DNA of 64,000 nucleotides from Thermoanaerobaculia bacterium (GTDB lineage Bacteria > Acidobacteriota > Thermoanaerobaculia > UBA5066). Made by a program: the position numbers and the translations under genes. The notes under the pieces are model-generated. The model saw only the letters and a list, made by a program, of their open reading frames with translations. It searched no databases and was not told the DNA's origin. The DNA lies in contig CAWFJJ010000024.1 in assembly GCA_963816185.1 (NCBI GenBank), positions 544,001 to 608,000 on the forward strand. The letters are read 5' to 3'. Positions 1 through 64,000 of this stretch are shown here, one piece after another (position 1 is the stretch's first letter; every line of letters begins with the position of its first letter).

Positions 1-1272
1 GTGCTCACGCTCGACAAGCACGGAGAGACGGTCAAGGCAGAATTCTTTCGCTCGTTGATTCGGAGTCGCGCAAGACTGACGTACACGCAGGTAGGAGGGT
101 TGATCGAGGATTTCTTAGAAAGTGAAGAAGGAAACGCCTCTCGCAGCGCGGCGGCCGAGCCCTTGCCGCATTCACCTTCTAAGAAATCCCCGTTCTCTTC
201 GGACGTTGCTTCCATGCTCCGCGTCGCGCAGAAGGCGTCGGGTCTTCTCCGAGCAAAAAGATCCCGCCGCGGCTCCCTCGACTTCGACCTGCCGGACGCG
301 GACGTCATCCTCGGCGAAGGGGGAGACGTCGTCGAGATCATCCGGGCCGTGCGCAACGAGGCGCACCGCCTCATCGAGGAGTTCATGCTGGCCGCGAACG
401 AGGCAGTCGCCAAGCACCTCGAGTTCGTCCCGACGCCGGCTCTCTACCGCGTGCATGACAGGCCGGACGAGAGCCGCCTCGCGGACCTGAGGGTCGTGCT
501 CGGGCCGCTCGGCTACGACCTTCCCGAAGACGAGGAAGAGGTCACGCCCGCCACGTTCCAGACCATCCTCGACCAGGCGGCGGGAAAGCCCGAAGAGCGG
601 TTCGTCTCGGATCTCGTCCTGCGCGCCCAGAAGAAAGCCATCTACTCCGAGGAGTGCCGCGGGCACTACGCGCTCGCGGCGAAGCACTACTGCCACTTCA
701 CGTCGCCGATCAGGCGCTACCCGGACCTCCTCGTCCACCGGGCGCTCGTGGAGTGGCTCGCCATCCGCCGCCCGCCCGCCGCCGAGGAGGCGGAAGGGCG
801 CACGCGCTGGTTCCACGAGGCGGCGGCGCACTGTTCGTCGCGCGAGAGGCGCGCCGAGTCGGCCGAGCGCGAGGCCGTGGCGTGGAAGAAGTTCGTCTTC
901 CTGTCGTCGCGCGTGGGCGAGGAATTCTGGGCGTACGTCTCGGCGGTCGTGGGCTTCGGCCTCTTCGTCACGCTCGAGGACATCTACGTGGACGGCCTCG
1001 TGCCGATCTCGTCGCTCGAGGACGACTTCTATCGCTTCGAGGACGTCGAGCACCGTCTCGTGGGCTCCTCTTCGGGGCGCGTCTACCGGCTCGGGGACCG
1101 CCTCCGGGTGAAGCTCGTCAAGGCGGACGCGGAAAAGCGCGGCCTGGACTTCGTGCCTGTGGGCGACAGCGCCGGGCCGCGGCGAAAGAGCCGCGTCGAA
1201 GCCATCGAGCGGCAGCGACAGCAGCGCGGACGACGCCGGTCCCCCGCCCCACACGGCCGGGCGCGGCGATAG
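1..1272 (+). CDS. rnr: Ribonuclease R, C-terminal part (5' end outside window)
   Basis: RNB motifs AHRLIEEFMLAANEAVA and HFTSPIRRYPDLLVHR, then an S1 domain and a basic tail. Confidence 0.95.
   Translation: MLTLDKHGETVKAEFFRSLIRSRARLTYTQVGGLIEDFLESEEGNASRSAAAEPLPHSPSKKSPFSSDVASMLRVAQKASGLLRAKRSRRGSLDFDLPDADVILGEGGDVVEIIRAVRNEAHRLIEEFMLAANEAVAKHLEFVPTPALYRVHDRPDESRLADLRVVLGPLGYDLPEDEEEVTPATFQTILDQAAGKPEERFVSDLVLRAQKKAIYSEECRGHYALAAKHYCHFTSPIRRYPDLLVHRALVEWLAIRRPPAAEEAEGRTRWFHEAAAHCSSRERRAESAEREAVAWKKFVFLSSRVGEEFWAYVSAVVGFGLFVTLEDIYVDGLVPISSLEDDFYRFEDVEHRLVGSSSGRVYRLGDRLRVKLVKADAEKRGLDFVPVGDSAGPRRKSRVEAIERQRQQRGRRRSPAPHGRARR
108..189. repeat. AT-rich inverted repeat inside rnr (19-bp arms, 1 mismatch)
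   Basis: GGATTTCTTAGAAAGTGAA (108-126) and TTCACCTTCTAAGAAATCC (171-189) read directly; the same motif recurs at 58896. Confidence 0.85.
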
Positions 1273-58134: not shown

Positions 58135-58620
58135 CTAGGCCTTGACCTCTTCCCTGACCCACACCCCGTTCTTCTCGACGTAGTTGAAGCGAGGCTTGCC
58201 GTTGACCTTGTGGACCGTCGTGTCGGTGATCACGATCTTCCCATCCTCGTTCTTCATGTAGAAGTCGACGTCGACCATCGTGCCGTCCTTGGCCTTGAAG
58301 TCCGTGCAGGCGAAGTACGTGTCGGCGGAGAGGGGCGTCAGCTTGTCGGTATGAACCTTGACGAGCGTGAGGTCCCAGGTCCTCTTCAGTACCTTGTCTT
58401 CCACCTTGAAGACCCCGCCCTCGGCCTTCGTCTTCTCGGCGATGTGGGCCTTGATGGCCTTGTCGAGGTCGGCCGTGCTGACGGTCTTGGCCTTCTCGGA
58501 CTTCGAGGGCTCGCCCTTCGCGGGATGCTCATGCCCCGCCGGATGCTCCTGCGCAAACCCTGGAGACGCCGCGAGAAGGAACGCTCCCGCGAGGATGGCC
58601 GCGTAACGAGTTGTTCTCAA
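58135..58620 (-). CDS. Exported hypothetical protein with His-rich N-terminus
   Basis: Signal peptide, EHPAGHEHP, YFACTDF; GGAGG SD. Confidence 0.75.
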   Translation of the reverse strand: MRTTRYAAILAGAFLLAASPGFAQEHPAGHEHPAKGEPSKSEKAKTVSTADLDKAIKAHIAEKTKAEGGVFKVEDKVLKRTWDLTLVKVHTDKLTPLSADTYFACTDFKAKDGTMVDVDFYMKNEDGKIVITDTTVHKVNGKPRFNYVEKNGVWVREEVKA

Positions 58621-58760
58621 GGTTCACCTCCCGGGTCGGATCATAGTCACAAGGGACTCGCTCGGAAATCGCATACCCCGCCCGTCACGCTCGCAGGTCT
58701 CCACCCGCCAGGCTCTTCGCGCGGACCGGGCTCGTTCGCAGCTACAATCCGGTCATCCAC

Positions 58761-61520
58761 GTGACGATCGCATCCGGTGTCCGCCTGGGACCGTACGAAG
58801 TACTTGCGCCTCTCGGGGCGGGAGGGATGGGAGAGGTCTACCGGGCGAAAGACCCTCGCCTCAATCGTGATGTCGCGATCAAGGTACTGCCGGGAGATTT
58901 CTTAGAAGGTGAAGAGCGCAAGGCGCGTTTCGAGCGAGAAGCTCGCTTGCTTGCGGCGCTGAATCACCCCGGCATCGCCGCCATCTACTCGTTCGAAGAA
59001 ATCCCCGGTTCTCCTTCTCGCCACATCCTCGTCATGGAGCTCGTCGAGGGCGAGGGTCTCGACCAGAGGATCGGCAGCCCCTCTCTTTCCCTCGAAGAAT
59101 CCCTTTCCATCGCCCGGCAGATCGCCGAGGCTCTGGAGGCGGCGCACGAGAAGGGGATCGTGCACCGGGACCTGAAGCCTGCGAACGTGAAGATCAGTCA
59201 CGACGGGCGGGTGAAGCTGCTGGACTTCGGCCTCGCGAAGATCTTCGAGAGCGAGGCAGGCGGCTCGAACCCGTCGATCTCGTATTCGCCGACGCTGACG
59301 GCGCGCGCCACGGCGGCGGGCGTCATCCTCGGGACGGCGGCGTACATGTCGCCCGAGCAGGCGCGGGGCAAGGCGGTGGACAAGCGGACGGACATCTGGG
59401 CGTTCGGGTGCGTGCTCTACGAGATGCTTGCGGGGAAGAGAGCCTTCGAAGGCGAGACGGTCTCCGACACGCTCGCGTCGATCCTCAGGGGAGAGCCGGA
59501 CTGGGCGGCATTGCCGCCGGGAACACCGGAGAAAGTCAAAGAGATTCTTGGAAAGTGCCTGAGGCGCGAGGCGAAGCAGCGCCTCCACGACATCGCGGAT
59601 GCGCGCCTCGACCTCGAGGAATTGAAGGCAGCCGGCGCGTCGAGATCCTCCGGTCAATTTCCCTTCGAAGAAAAGACCGCGGTGCCGAGCCCAACGGTGG
59701 CAAGCGCAGAAGGGACGAGTCGTGAGCGAGGGAGCAAGAGGTCTCTCTATCTCTCCTGGGCGGTTGCGGCCGCGTTCGCGGCCGCGGCCGGGGTGCTCGC
59801 CCTGCGCGCTCGCGCCCCCGAAGTGCGCGTGTATCGCGCGACGATCAACCCTCCCGAGGGCACGGTCTTCGCCGTCGACACGACACAGCCTGGGCCGGCG
59901 GTTCTCTCGCCTGACGGACGGAAGCTTGCGTTCACGGCTCGCGGAGTCGACGCGAAGGTCAGGTTGTATGTCCAGCCCCTTGACTCCACCGGGGCGCAGC
60001 CCCTGCCGGGGACGGAGAACGCCCAGTACCCGTTCTGGTCTCCAGACAGCCGCTTTCTCGCATTCGGAGCCGATCAGAAGCTCAAGAGGATCGAGGCGTC
60101 CGGCGGACCGCCGTCGATCCTCTGCCCGACGACCGATTTTCCGAAAGGGGGAACGTGGAGCGCTCGAGGCGTGATCGTCTTTGCTCCCGCGGCCGGCGGG
60201 CCGCTCCACGTCGTCTCCGAGAACGGAGGCGAGTCGAAGCCGATCACGAAGCTCGACGAGAAGCGGGGCGAGAATTCCCACAGGCTCCCGTTCTTCCTTC
60301 CGGACGGGCGGCACTTCCTTTACCTCGCCCGCCTCGGGAGCGCGCTCCCGGCTGAGGGGCATCAGATCTTCGTGGGCTCCCTCGACGGCGGCGAATCGAA
60401 GGCTCTCCTCAGTTCGCCGACAGCCGCGGAGTACGCGTCCGGTTATCTCCTCTTCCTGCGCGACCGCGACCTGATGGCGCAGCGCTTCGATCCCAAGAGT
60501 CTCGCTCTTGAGGGGGAGGCGCACCCCGTGGCCGAGAACGTCAGCGTGCTCACCGGCGCCGCCAAAGCGAACTTTTCCGCCTCGCAGGCCGGGGTTCTCG
60601 TGGCCCAGATCGGAGCGGCCGTCGTCCTCGGAGCACAGCTCGAATGGACGGACCGTGCGGGGAAGCTGCTCGGCACGTTGGCGGATCGCGATGCCTACGA
60701 CGAGGTCAGTGTTTCACCGGACGGGCGCAGCGTCGCCGTGTCGCAGATCGATCTGAAGGCGGGCACACACGACATCTGGATCTGCGACGTCGCTCGGAAC
60801 CTGAAGACGCGATTCACGTTCGATCCGGGCGAGGAGCTCACGCCGCGTTGGGCCCCGGGCGGCCGCTCGCTCGTTTACGTAGCCGGCCGCGGCGCGCAGC
60901 AGGGACTTTATCGGAAGGAGATAGGAGGCTCCGGCGTGGAGGAGCTGCTGTACGCGTCGGAAACCGTCAAGGTCCCGAGCGGCTTCTCGCCGGATGGAAA
61001 ACTTCTCGCTTTCAACGAGGTCGGAACCGACACCGGCCTCGACATCTGGATCCTGCCGCTGACGGGGGACCGCAAGCCATATCCGTTTCTCAAGACGAAT
61101 TTCAATGAGTCGAACGCCGTTTTCTCCTCTGACGGAAAGTGGCTTGCCTATAACTCGAACGAATCCGGGCGGGCCGAGGTCTACGTCACTCCGTTTCCGG
61201 GTCCCGGCCGCAAGTGGCAGGTCTCGACGCAGGGAGGGGCGTATCCCGAGTGGCGACAGGGTGGCCGGGAAATCCTCTACCAGGACCTCAAGACCAACGA
61301 GATCATGGCCGTCCCGGTAGCCTTCAAGGGCGACGCCCCGGACTTCGGTGCGGCCCGGGAGCTCTTCACGGCAACGCCGCCGCTGGCCGGGTTCGCGCGA
61401 CGCTACGACGCGACCGCCGACGGGAAGAAGTTCATCATGATCCGCCCGAACCAAACGAGGGAGACGGGATCGCTCACGCTCGTCGTAGGCTGGACGGCGG
61501 AGCTCGAGGGAAAGAAGTGA
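58761..61520 (+). CDS. Ser/Thr receptor kinase with TolB/PD40 beta-propeller
   Basis: GAGGMG, HRDLKPAN, DFG, TM, repeated SPDG motifs. Confidence 0.95.
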   Translation: MTIASGVRLGPYEVLAPLGAGGMGEVYRAKDPRLNRDVAIKVLPGDFLEGEERKARFEREARLLAALNHPGIAAIYSFEEIPGSPSRHILVMELVEGEGLDQRIGSPSLSLEESLSIARQIAEALEAAHEKGIVHRDLKPANVKISHDGRVKLLDFGLAKIFESEAGGSNPSISYSPTLTARATAAGVILGTAAYMSPEQARGKAVDKRTDIWAFGCVLYEMLAGKRAFEGETVSDTLASILRGEPDWAALPPGTPEKVKEILGKCLRREAKQRLHDIADARLDLEELKAAGASRSSGQFPFEEKTAVPSPTVASAEGTSRERGSKRSLYLSWAVAAAFAAAAGVLALRARAPEVRVYRATINPPEGTVFAVDTTQPGPAVLSPDGRKLAFTARGVDAKVRLYVQPLDSTGAQPLPGTENAQYPFWSPDSRFLAFGADQKLKRIEASGGPPSILCPTTDFPKGGTWSARGVIVFAPAAGGPLHVVSENGGESKPITKLDEKRGENSHRLPFFLPDGRHFLYLARLGSALPAEGHQIFVGSLDGGESKALLSSPTAAEYASGYLLFLRDRDLMAQRFDPKSLALEGEAHPVAENVSVLTGAAKANFSASQAGVLVAQIGAAVVLGAQLEWTDRAGKLLGTLADRDAYDEVSVSPDGRSVAVSQIDLKAGTHDIWICDVARNLKTRFTFDPGEELTPRWAPGGRSLVYVAGRGAQQGLYRKEIGGSGVEELLYASETVKVPSGFSPDGKLLAFNEVGTDTGLDIWILPLTGDRKPYPFLKTNFNESNAVFSSDGKWLAYNSNESGRAEVYVTPFPGPGRKWQVSTQGGAYPEWRQGGREILYQDLKTNEIMAVPVAFKGDAPDFGAARELFTATPPLAGFARRYDATADGKKFIMIRPNQTRETGSLTLVVGWTAELEGKK
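58896..58915. repeat. Copy of the rnr AT-rich motif inside the kinase gene
   Basis: GATTTCTTAGAAGGTGAA(GA): 18/18 identical to the reverse complement of 171-188. Confidence 0.8.
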
Positions 61521-61527
61521 GCGAGAC

Positions 61528-64000
61528 GTGACGCTGGCGGCCGGCACGAAGCTCGGGACGTACGAGGTTCTGGCCCCGCTCGGCGCCGGGGGGATGGGAG
61601 AGGTCTACCGGGCGAAGGATCTTCGCCTCGGGCGCGACGTCGCTATCAAGGTCCTGCCGGAAGAATTCTTCGAAGATGAAGAGAGAAGGACCCGCTTCGA
61701 AAGAGAGGCGCGGACGCTTGCGAGTCTGAATCATCCGGGCGTCGCCGCGATCTATTCATTCGAAGAAATCCCTGGTTCCTCTGATTCCCCCGGCTCGCAC
61801 GTCCGCCACATTCTCGTGATGGAGCTCGTGGAGGGCGAGTCGCTACGCCAGCGGATCTCCGAGGGCGCCCTGCCGGTGCGCAAGGCCGTGGACCTCGGAG
61901 CCCAGATCGCGCGCGGCCTCGCGGCCGCCCACGAGAGCGGGATCGTCCATCGGGACCTCAAGCCGGAGAACGTCGTCCTCACGAAGGACGGGCGCGCGAA
62001 GATCCTCGACTTCGGCCTCGCGAAGCAGCGCGCCGCCACGCCTGAAGAGGACACGAAGTCGCCGACGCTCGCGAGAGCGACGGACGCCGGGACTCTCCTC
62101 GGGACCGTCGGGTACATGGCGCCCGAGCAGGTGAGAGGGCAGAGTGCCGACGCGCGGTCCGACATCTTCGCGTTCGGGTGTGTCCTCTTCGAGATGCTGA
62201 CGGGCCGGCGCGCGTTCAGGGGCGACTCCGCGATCGAAACCATGAACGCGATCCTGAAGGAGGAGCCGCCCGAGCCCGACGTTTCGGCGGCGAAGATTCC
62301 TCCCGACCTCGACCGGTTCATCCGGCACTGTCTCGAGAAGAATCCCGCCGAGCGGTTCCAGTCCGCGCGAGACGTCGCGTTCGACCTCGAGGCTCTCGCG
62401 GGGAGCTCGTCGACGGGCCGTGCCACAGCCGTCATGCCGTCCGGCGGCGGCCGTCGCTGGCGCGTCGTCGCGGCCGTGGTCGTCGCAGTCGCCGCGATCG
62501 TCGCGGCGCACGTCGCGGGCTTCCGCCGGGGCAAGAACGCGGCGGCCCCGGTCCCGTCGTTCGCGCAGCTCACGTTCCGGCAGGAACCGATTTTCACCGC
62601 GCGCCTCGCCCCGGACGGCAAGACGGTCGTCTTCAGCTCCGCTCCGTCCGGCAATGCTCCCGAGATCTTCTCGGTCCGCTCCGACTTCGCGGGCGCGAGC
62701 CCTCGCCGCCTCCTCTCCGGCCAGCTCCTCGCGATTTCGTCCCGCGGCGAGTTGGCCGTCCTGAGCCATGCGCGGTACCTCGCCCACAGCCTCTTCGAGG
62801 GCACGCTCGCGCGGATGCCGCTCGAAGGCGGCGCGCCGCGCGAGATCCTCGACGGCGTGCGCGAGGCCGAGTGGTCTCCGGACGGCTCCGATCTCGCGGT
62901 GATCCGCGCCGTGGGCGGGAAGGACCATCTCGAGTTCCCCGTCGGAAAGGTCCTCGCCGAGACGGGCGGGTACTTCAGCAATCCGCGCTTCTCCCCGCGC
63001 GGCGACCGGATCGCGTTCTTCGAGCACCCCTTCAAGTACGACGACCGAGGCGGGATCGCCTCCGTCGACCTCGCGGGCAAGAAGACGGTCCTTTCGGACG
63101 GGTATTGGGGAGAGGAGGGACTCGCGTGGTCGCCCGGCGGAGACGAGGTCATGTTTTCCGCCGGGACCGCGTACAACAACTTCAAGGTGTTCGCGGTCTC
63201 CCTCTCGGGCCGGCGGCGCGTCGCGCTCGAGAGCGCCGGGGGCCTGACGATCCACGACATCCGGGGCGACGGGCGCTGGCTCGCCACGCGGGACGACTTC
63301 TTCCGCGAAATGCCCGTCTTCGTACGCGGGCAGGCGCACGAACGGGACCTCTCCTGGCTCGACCTCTCCGACCCCGTGGCCTTCACGCGGGACGCGGGGA
63401 CTCTTCTCTTCATGGAGGAGAGCGGCAGCGTGGGCGTGAACTACGCCGTGTGCGTTCGCCAGACCGACGGGTCGCCCGTCGTCCGCCTCGGGGAGGGCGC
63501 CGCCGCCGACCTGTCGCCGGACGGCAAGTGGGCGCTCGCGAACGTTCCGACGACGCCGCAGCAGCTCGTTCTGTACCCCACGGGCGCGGGCGAGGCGCGA
63601 CGGCTCGAGCGTGCGGGACTCGTCGCGTTCGACTCCGCGCGGTTCTTCCCGGACGGCAAGCGAATTCTCACCTGCGGTCACGAAGAGGCCAAGGCCGTCC
63701 GCTGCTACGTCCAGGACGTCGCGTCGGGCGGGTCCCGGCCCTTGACGCCGGAGGGAACCACCGACGGATATCCCGCGCCCGACGGCAGGACGGTCGTGGT
63801 GAGGACCCCCGCCGGCGATCTCGCCCTCCATCCCGTAGACGGAGGCGAGGGGCGGCCCGTCACGGGCACGAAGCCCGGCGACACCGTCGTCCGCTGGAGC
63901 ATCGACGGGCGCTCGCTGTTCGTCGTGTCGGGCACGGAGGTCCCGGCGCGCGTCGAGCGCCTCGATCTCGCGACGGGCCGGCGAGAACCGGTTCGCACGC
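61528..64000 (+). CDS. Second Ser/Thr receptor kinase with propeller domain, 3'-truncated (absent from ORF track)
   Basis: Manual translation from GTG 61528: GAGGMG, HRDLKPEN, DFG, TM near 62460, SPDG repeats; no stop seen in the portions checked. Confidence 0.92.
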   Translation, partial: MTLAAGTKLGTYEVLAPLGAGGMGEVYRAKDLRLGRDVAIKVLPEEFFEDEERRTRFEREARTLASLNHPGVAAIYSFEEIPGSSDSPGSHVRHILVMELVEGESLRQRISEGALPVRKAVDLGAQIARGLAAAHESGIVHRDLKPENVVLTKDGRAKILDFGLAKQRAATPEEDTKSPTLARATDAGTLLGTVGYMAPEQVRGQSADARSDIFAFGCVLFEMLTGRRAFRGDSAIETMNAILKEEPPEPDVSAAKIPPDLDRFIRHCLEKNPAERFQSARDVAFDLEALAGSSSTGRATAVMPSGGGRRWRVVAAVVVAVAAIVAAHVAGFRRGKNAAAPVPSFAQLTFRQEPIFTARLAPDGKTVVFSSAPSGNAPEIFSVRSDFAGASPRRLLSGQLLAISSRGELAVLSHARYLAHSLFEGTLARMPLEGGAPREILDGVREAEWSPDGSDLAVIRAVGGKDHLEFPVGKVLAETGGYFSNPRFSPRGDRIAFFEHPFKYDDRGGIASVDLAGKKTVLSDGYWGEEGLAWSPGGDEVMFSAGTAYNNFKVFAVSLSGRRRVALESAGGLTIHDIRGDGRWLATRDDFFREMPVFVRGQAHERDLSWLDLSDPVAFTRDAGTLLFMEESGSVGVNYAVCVRQTDGSPVVRLGEGAAADLSPDGKWALANVPTTPQQLVLYPTGAGEARRLERAGLVAFDSARFFPDGKRILTCGHEEAKAVRCYVQDVASGGSRPLTPEGTTDGYPAPDGRTVVVRTPAGDLALHPVDGGEGRPVTGTKPGDTVVRWSIDGRSLFVVSGTEVPARVERLDLATGRREPVRT

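Follow-up and report, generated by a model that had tools for sequence, protein, structure and literature searches.

Can a DNA word be worth the rewriting of the proteins in which it lies? The question is raised by a Ser/Thr protein kinase gene with a PD40 beta-propeller (58761..61520, plus strand; 919 aa) in a 64,000-nucleotide stretch of a Thermoanaerobaculia genome from a lineage of soil bacteria without cultured members, hereafter the window (contig C24, positions 544001-608000, of the 5.09-Mb draft genome G000, with 67% GC and 30 contigs). The original prediction, made from the window alone, held that an inverted pair of motif copies resembling one in rnr had overwritten coding sequence of the kinase by accumulating substitutions. 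To our knowledge, few DNA words are known to merit rewriting proteins (uptake sequences and HIP1), and the geometry and chromosomal distribution of the present motif are unlike those of any of these words. We found that the motif occurs in hundreds of copies, mostly as facing pairs, and we tentatively read these pairs as protein-binding sites.

Sites were scored with a weight matrix trained on G000 (main threshold of at least 20 bits, with the reversed genome as control), and genes were called with a dicodon script that returned 4098 genes (86% coding) and missed some. The kinase gene has five motif copies, four of which lie inside the kinase domain (Pfam, aa 12-275) at aa 48, 79, 112 and 263, in agreement with the catalytic-domain placement originally proposed. 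The left arm of the first pair (58892..58917, plus strand; centre 58903, 34.7 bits) contains GATTTCTTAGAAGGTGAAG exactly at 58896-58914 and encodes D-F-L-E-G-E-E in frame in the 919-aa open reading frame. Its right arm, 93 bp away (58982..59007, minus strand; centre 58996, 23.9 bits), encodes Y-S-F-E-E-I-P; there, TACTCGTTCGAAGAAATCC at 58986-59004 matches the rnr right arm at 15 of 19 positions and is followed by a pyrimidine flank. This flank is the outer purine tract of the arm (59003..59019, minus strand; pyrimidines on the plus strand, encoding P-G-S-P-S), a loop insertion of variable length. All coordinates first given were correct. A third copy (59081..59106, minus strand; centre 59095, 23.0 bits; S-L-E-E-S-L) had been overlooked. 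The weaker copies reported near 59541 and 59658 proved to be a second facing pair, with arms at 59538..59563 (plus strand; centre 59549, 18.0 bits) and 59654..59679 (minus strand; centre 59668, 24.4 bits; F-P-F-E-E-K); the latter lies in the linker beyond the kinase domain, 119 bp from its mate. The reference pair in rnr (105..192) has centres at 116 (plus strand, 36.4 bits) and 181 (minus strand, 31.8 bits).

Genome-wide, the consensus reads as a purine run, W-T-T-T-C-T-T-[A/C]-G-A-A-R-G and further purines, with TTC-N3-GAA as the invariant part and the core TTTCTT[A/C]GAARG flanked outside by purine-rich DNA. The core of the site is a 9-bp pseudo-palindrome with asymmetric flanks and fuzzy outer ends, and the whole site spans 25-35 bp. 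We counted 755 sites of at least 20 bits in G000 and 66 in the reversed genome; matches with up to three mismatches numbered 162, against 1, 1 and 4 in three order-5 Markov simulations. The abundance of the motif is not due to chance. Called genes contain 500 of the 755 sites, in all six frames, and intergenic density is three-fold higher. Unpaired coding sites showed no bias for the transcribed strand (56 sense, 46 antisense). A literature search returned no description of the motif and its literal strings only in unrelated papers, a search that covered mostly papers outside subscription journals.

The sites are organized in pairs. Among neighbours within 300 bp (n = 309), 230 were facing (+/-), 37 were ++, 36 were -- and 6 were divergent (-/+), and a facing mate was present for 659 of 821 sites (80%). 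Sites are strongly clumped (173 gaps of up to 100 bp vs 11 expected), and the largest gaps reach 131 kb. Intergenic pairs peak at a spacing of 74-78 bp (19 of 58), whereas coding pairs are more spread, as with the 93 and 119 bp in the kinase. The spacers showed no 10.5-bp helical phasing (p = 0.11); a 9.25-bp term had p = 0.001, uncorrected, with 16 periods tried. The spacers themselves are mostly unrelated to one another, 223 of the 279 in facing pairs being singletons. Arm-to-arm identity was 5340 over 237 pairs, compared with 5311 ± 49 in shuffled pairings, without covariation. The arms of a pair are no more alike than shuffled arms, and each arm therefore follows the consensus independently, which would fit a protein binding duplex DNA rather than a hairpin. 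An RNA or single-stranded DNA hairpin is ruled out by the missing covariation, and no Rfam match with E ≤ 0.1 was found in 58500-62200.

How were the arms written into the kinase? An alignment of 29 homologues shows that the left arm differs from the outgroups without any indel: PEAFAADAER, PEAVAEDAER and PEALGQDPER in the outgroups correspond to PEEFFEGEER and PGDFLEGEER in the genus. In the right arm, the outgroup peptide IYGLEES has become IYSFEEI, and the outer tract adds 0-17 residues, mostly Ser, among genus homologues. The left arm is thus a product of pure substitution, and the right arm of substitution plus a Ser-rich flank expansion. Synonymous sites converge on the motif, as the original prediction had expected of an alignment of homologues: at four core Glu positions in 22 genus homologues, GAA accounts for 82 of 87 codons, compared with 31 of 221 Glu codons within their catalytic lobes, and the motif Gly and Arg positions use the rare codons GGT and AGR. 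In rnr, substitutions in L-L-E gave rise to the left arm, and the right arm came with an insertion. The loop segment holding the rnr pair is 41-104 aa long in the genus vs 44-45 aa in outgroups, with some spacer text common between species, and from one species to another its arms have appeared, disappeared or been duplicated (of 22 genus genomes, 12 have both, five only the plus and three only the minus arm).

Comparison with the sister-genus genome G082 extends this to other genes. Of 184 internal coding sites with an orthologue there, 145 align and 39 are gapped, whereas 3.7% of random positions are gapped. At 39 of the 145 aligned positions, G082 retains a weak site on the same strand, compared with 14 of 3025 positions drawn at random. 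Site density is 213-246 per Mb in genes 35-70% identical to their G082 counterparts and 12 per Mb in genes more than 80% identical. Accumulation by substitution, as first proposed, thus holds as the main route, for both arms and for the codons; insertion is a second route, seen in the right flank and at the 39 gapped sites. The accompanying suggestion that the motif mainly marks long-resident DNA was not borne out, as chromosome position and low protein conservation predict its density better.

It should be noted that peptides of the EEFFED/YSFEEI type also occur with ordinary GC-rich codons, in seven homologues found in the genomes G082, G341, G031 and G025 (the last unpublished). At the core Glu positions examined above, these homologues have GAA in 6 of 22 codons, vs 6 of 55 control codons. 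Taken literally, this is the observation named at the outset as speaking against overwriting. We consider these homologues probably to be decayed relics of the motif, because G082 has weak orthologous sites, the Ser-rich flank insertion is kept in G082 and G341, and the peptide is patchy in the other family. The sister genus accounts for five of the seven. G031 and G025, which belong to another family, contribute one kinase each, and none of 38 kinases read in G027 has the peptide, which suggests that these two were acquired by transfer.

The motif has visibly reshaped a kinase family. The marked N-lobe cassette of the window kinase runs from the start codon to the hinge ELVEGE (58761..59054, plus strand) and, by DNA identity and trees, is common to kinases of other catalytic-lobe subfamilies. 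Among 61 kinases extracted from G000, 21 have a motif-type N-lobe. These N-lobes form one clade (51 rows, SH-aLRT 96) whose base is weakly placed; with the motif columns removed they still group, together with six other rows (five on long branches). The catalytic lobes beneath them are not monophyletic (approximately unbiased test, p-AU = 2e-42), with at least four changes forced in 27 chosen rows. In five pairs of paralogs, the DNA is 67-97% identical per 30 bp along the N-lobe and 33-63% identical just past the hinge. Catalytic lobes of the EN/DN/GN type have a motif N-lobe in 13 of 34 cases in G000, whereas none of 32 has the ancestral A-type N-lobe in the outgroup G027. The marked N-lobe is joined to catalytic lobes of four or more subfamilies and has therefore spread by recombination. 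The second kinase of the window (61528..64000, plus strand, extending past the window end) is such a chimera, with a motif N-lobe and a catalytic lobe from a different subfamily (HRDLKPENV). Its arms (61659..61684, plus strand, centre 61670, 31.1 bits; 61749..61774, minus strand, centre 61763, 26.6 bits) match the equivalents originally reported, and their description as homologous rather than independent stands: they are not independent origins, yet they record repeated conversion events. Frameshifted kinase copies elsewhere in G000 (C24:360068-360959 and the C28:382674 region) keep strong motif pairs, with small indels near the arms.

The motif is lineage-specific, being strong in the genus and weak in the sister genus. 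A strict pattern was found in all 24 relatives of the genus and in none of 16 genomes of two other families. Among 401 genomes of the class, the 12-mer occurs 27-211 times in all 20 genus genomes, 25 times in the sister-genus genome G174 and 0-4 times in the remaining 380; a looser pattern, mostly in the TTC form, has 18-33 copies in five further sister-genus genomes. The 2.0 Mb read of G082 contain 23 sites of at least 16 bits (control, 4), with 13 facing and 2 divergent pairs. In G159, from a third genus of the family, no site reached 12 bits within 100 kb around dif, and no alternative dialect of the motif was found in the same 100 kb. With strong, weak and absent states in neighbouring genera, the motif allows the rise of a DNA-level signal, its cost to the proteome and its decay to be followed in a natural experiment.

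Position on the chromosome matters as well. With dnaA at C29:112 kb and dif at C28:475.6 kb in G000, coding sites number 23 per Mb on the dnaA contig and 187 per Mb on the dif contig, and intergenic sites 207 and 577 per Mb. The drop near the origin, 3- to 8-fold, occurs in genes both with and without G082 hits, and GC at third codon positions is flat (0.84-0.89 in most bins). In G011, which consists of two contigs, the smaller oriented to put dnaA opposite dif, the sites counted in successive 0.8-Mb bins away from dif number 17, 17, 15, 6, 7 and 3 (n = 65; Kolmogorov-Smirnov p = 2.6e-5), that is, a plateau of about 1.2 Mb on each side of dif followed by a step. Chi is oriented with the replichore. 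The motif shows neither this nor a KOPS-like orientation, with no leading or lagging bias overall (343 vs 344) or among unpaired sites (53 vs 65). Purine words rich in G (GGGGAG, GAAGGGGA), which are not part of the paired motif, do point towards dif in G159, G082 and G000, as KOPS would.

Compared with known systems, the motif accumulates like an uptake sequence and is positioned like matS, and it fails a defining feature of each family tested. As described in PMC2817400, the uptake sequences of Pasteurellaceae (USS) and Neisseriaceae (DUS) are likewise lineage-specific words in hundreds of copies that arise by mutation and recombination rather than insertion, enrich certain peptides and fall in poorly conserved genes and residues. 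Unlike these, which that account describes as spread more evenly than random, the motif is 80% in facing pairs with an optimum of about 76 bp, clumped, depleted near the origin and about five-fold less dense; we thus found substitution at poorly conserved coding sites and no even spread. Terminus-side concentration without replichore polarity recalls MatP/matS and XerD/XDS (PMC7163298, PMC11894783), and was observed in G000 and G011 (weaker or unclear in G019 and G174). However, matS comprises about 23 sites in about 800 kb (PMC7163298), and MatP is reported to co-occur with MukBEF in gamma-proteobacteria (PMC7163298, PMC11894783); the motif has hundreds of asymmetric paired sites over about half the chromosome, two thirds of them inside genes, rather than a few tens within less than 1 Mb.

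The ParB family binds TTTC...GAAA half-sites, and the core half-sites TTTC...GAAR resemble TGTTTCAC-GTGAAACA and TATTTCCC-GGGAAATA of Noc/NBS (the Noc-binding sites) and ParB/parS (PMC7383237). By the same source, Noc shares with the motif many dispersed sites, regional exclusion and a second ParB-family gene. Yet the motif has a 3-bp rather than 4-bp centre, asymmetric flanks instead of a 16-bp palindrome, obligate-looking pairs and a ParB paralog that does not clearly track it, and it avoids the origin where NBS avoids the terminus. REPINs, as presented in PMC3116915, lie outside genes, consist of GC-rich palindromes in which changes compensate one another, and are linked to a RAYT. Like the motif, they form inverted doublets of preferred spacing (71 bp in REPINs); here the sites are not mostly extragenic or GC-rich palindromes, form no hairpin with compensatory changes and have no linked RAYT (PF01797). 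Nor did we find the homologous interior and sharp ends of a MITE or RPE, 223 of 279 spacers being unique and 43 of 64 coding spacers host sequence. HIP1 of cyanobacteria is also an over-represented word of unclear function that is being examined for selection (PMC5861425), but it is a perfect palindrome of 8 bp with links to methyltransferases (PMC4390886), whereas the motif is 25-35 bp long, asymmetric and in facing pairs.

Starting from what is observed directly, namely the pairs, their geometry, the origin-side depletion, the substitutions at tolerant codons, the flank expansions and the mosaic kinases, we propose that these are paired protein-binding sites selected in the terminus-side chromosome, a reading on which we are almost evenly divided and lean slightly to doubt. 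On this view, a DNA-binding complex peculiar to the lineage would bind the motif two facing copies at a time, with a preference for a distance of about 76 bp, and may help to organize or segregate the chromosome, with selection acting mainly in the terminus-side half of the latter. Each arm would be read separately as double-stranded DNA, without arm-to-arm pairing. Selection would have written arms where the protein tolerated F-L/F-E-[G/E], S-F-E-E or P-S-K-K, and the kinase N-lobe with its pair would then have been copied onto paralogs by homologous recombination between P-loop and hinge. The 76-bp pair offers a concrete bait for a new chromosome-organizing or recombination-biasing protein. 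In a bolder form, which strikes us as rather unlikely, the pairs would make up a previously undescribed chromosome-domain code: a two-headed machine would read sites that face each other at about 76 bp throughout the terminus half, selection for them would have been strong enough to rewrite hundreds of proteins and to drive the kinase N-lobe through its gene family by conversion, and the ParB paralog would be a possible reader on dispersed pairs rather than at one centromere.

This paralog is encoded by a second parA-parB operon (G000:C28:473853-475630) that ends 92 bp from dif. Its CTPase and helix-turn-helix motifs are intact, and most of the family genomes examined have a dif match at this locus as well. 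A motif site stands between its stop codon and dif in 10 of 15 genus genomes, one of three sister-genus genomes and none of 12 others; no local palindrome conserved outside coding sequence was seen in the loci examined. That it is the reader is, in our estimate, doubtful. A histone-fold wrap was rejected, since PF00808 was not found in 61 family genomes, and so were gyrase and topo IV, both present with unremarkable C-terminal domains (nine sequences) and ParC also in the motif-free G130. In four genomes of family f1, there are two A subunits of type IIA topoisomerases, one of gyrase and one ParC-like, and G027 of the neighbouring family has one. The gene-loss screen covered 2.0 of the 4.2 Mb of G082, which is a weak motif carrier and not a clean negative. 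It left 142 candidates, 108 after tblastn, and among the 17 of these or their neighbours that were scanned with Pfam the sole nucleic-acid-related hit, in the half of G082 read, was an EVE domain.

Several points weigh against selected binding sites on the terminus side. The search for a reader (Pfam families, gene-loss screen and ParB loci) identified no binding protein; the ParB paralog occurs in 59 of 61 genomes of the order, most of them motif-free, with a nearly invariant recognition helix, and G000 itself has no motif site beside it. The dense zone, about 2.4 Mb with hundreds of sites, is far broader than that of matS, and the origin class of core genes comprises 24 genes only. In G019, the site-poor region is largely confined to one flank of dnaA (C2 has 40 sites in its initial 835 kb and 9 in the 0.7 Mb that follow), and dnaA is only 0.73 Mb from dif in a 3.9-Mb genome, which may reflect rearrangement, misassembly or an origin away from dnaA. 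The 18 sites of G174 have no clear positional pattern, and neither sites within a pair nor genomes within the genus are independent. As for the mosaic kinases, the control is a single outgroup genome (G027, 38 of its 58 listed kinases), in which other N-lobe types are also shuffled.

Other explanations have to be weighed against the same observations. DNA with a facing pair might be preferentially taken up, protected or recombined, following the logic of uptake sequences or a double Chi, without serving the chromosome. Such drive, which we regard as unlikely, would suit the lineage restriction and the invasion of paralogs by the marked N-lobe, as expected of a biased donor, but it predicts neither the 74-78-bp optimum nor the origin-side depletion, and the motif lacks the replichore polarity of Chi. 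ComEC is present in 55 of 61 family genomes including G000, yet it does not track the motif, as 16 of 17 motif-free g13 genomes also have it. Substitution in poorly conserved genes and residues is shared with uptake sequences, whereas the more-even-than-random spread described for the latter (PMC2817400) contrasts with pairwise clustering and gaps of up to 131 kb. A site-directed mutational process, by templated overwriting or slippage beside a bound protein, could write arms and purine tracts without selection; we think this distinctly improbable. The outer tracts are indeed of low complexity and variable length, arms have come, gone and been duplicated at the rnr locus, and some sites adjoin frameshifts in kinase pseudogenes, but sites are kept at orthologous positions across two genera, rare codons are held at core positions across 22 homologues, and neither the gene-loss screen nor the Pfam scans nor the Y1 search found a writing enzyme.

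It is very unlikely that the pairs are relics of a small mobile element with inverted ends, of REPIN, MITE or RPE type, with diverged interiors. The spacing peak of facing doublets near 76 bp resembles the 71-bp peak of REPINs (PMC3116915), nine of 64 coding pairs have spacers absent from G082, and rnr loop expansions share some spacer text. For the kinase pairs, however, this is already largely refuted, the spacer of the first pair being the conserved alphaC region, and 43 of the 64 coding pairs enclose host sequence alignable in G082. The arms do not covary, most sites are coding, outer ends are fuzzy, and RAYT/Y1 is anticorrelated with the motif (a search for PF01797 was negative in G000 and in 22 of the 26 other genomes of the genus, and positive in all 17 motif-free g13 genomes). 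For the kinase only, one could suppose that the EEFFED and YSFEEI peptides were fixed first for protein function and the motif layered on later by synonymous change. The seven homologues with ordinary codons come from motif-poor genomes, IYSFE(N/E)V occurs without the motif in a related kinase subfamily, and the tree does not settle the base of the motif-type clade. Against this, five of the seven belong to the sister genus that retains weak sites and the Ser-rich insertion, and the other two suggest transfer. Hundreds of unrelated loci encode these peptides as well, and the genome-wide pairs would be left unexplained. We find this account very unlikely.

Within the window, no site of at least 10 bits lies between 181 and 58903. 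The earlier remark that the 9-46 kb accessory block lacks copies is thus correct, whereas "accessory" is only partly apt, as 14 of its 27 called genes have reciprocal best hits in one syntenic block of G082. A 58.7-kb gap anywhere in contig C24 has P of about 0.09 under a uniform model. The 14 hits of the motif-free block (9367-44121) are at 48-92% identity, several far above the 67% median, and a shared or recently exchanged island is therefore suggested.

Further features were encountered in these genomes. A second dif-like site at G082:C1:2715949 is possibly on an integrated element, and a 22-bp palindrome of the AACTGATGGACGTCCATCAGTT type has 25 half-site matches in G082:C1:1-64200 and one in the next 1.9 Mb, this cluster being away from dnaA and parB (both on C2). 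TTA codons fall within motif zones in 77 of 493 cases in G000 genes of at least 100 aa. The sequencing runs containing G000 comprise five DNA runs, with shares of 0.05-0.36, and no RNA run is listed. Another repeat of G000, distinct from the motif, is a GC-rich hairpin of about 70 bp that resembles REP elements; it has the stem GTCAAGGG...CCCTTGAC and occurs at 46 places (e.g., C24:143402 and C28:410427), and no Y1 transposase was found in G000. Its arms visibly covary, and it has 34 full copies in G000 and one in 2 Mb of G082. The repeat often lies inside a motif pair, and a motif site is present within 300 bp for 22 of 29 copies in dense regions vs 5 of 14 in sparse ones (p = 0.018).

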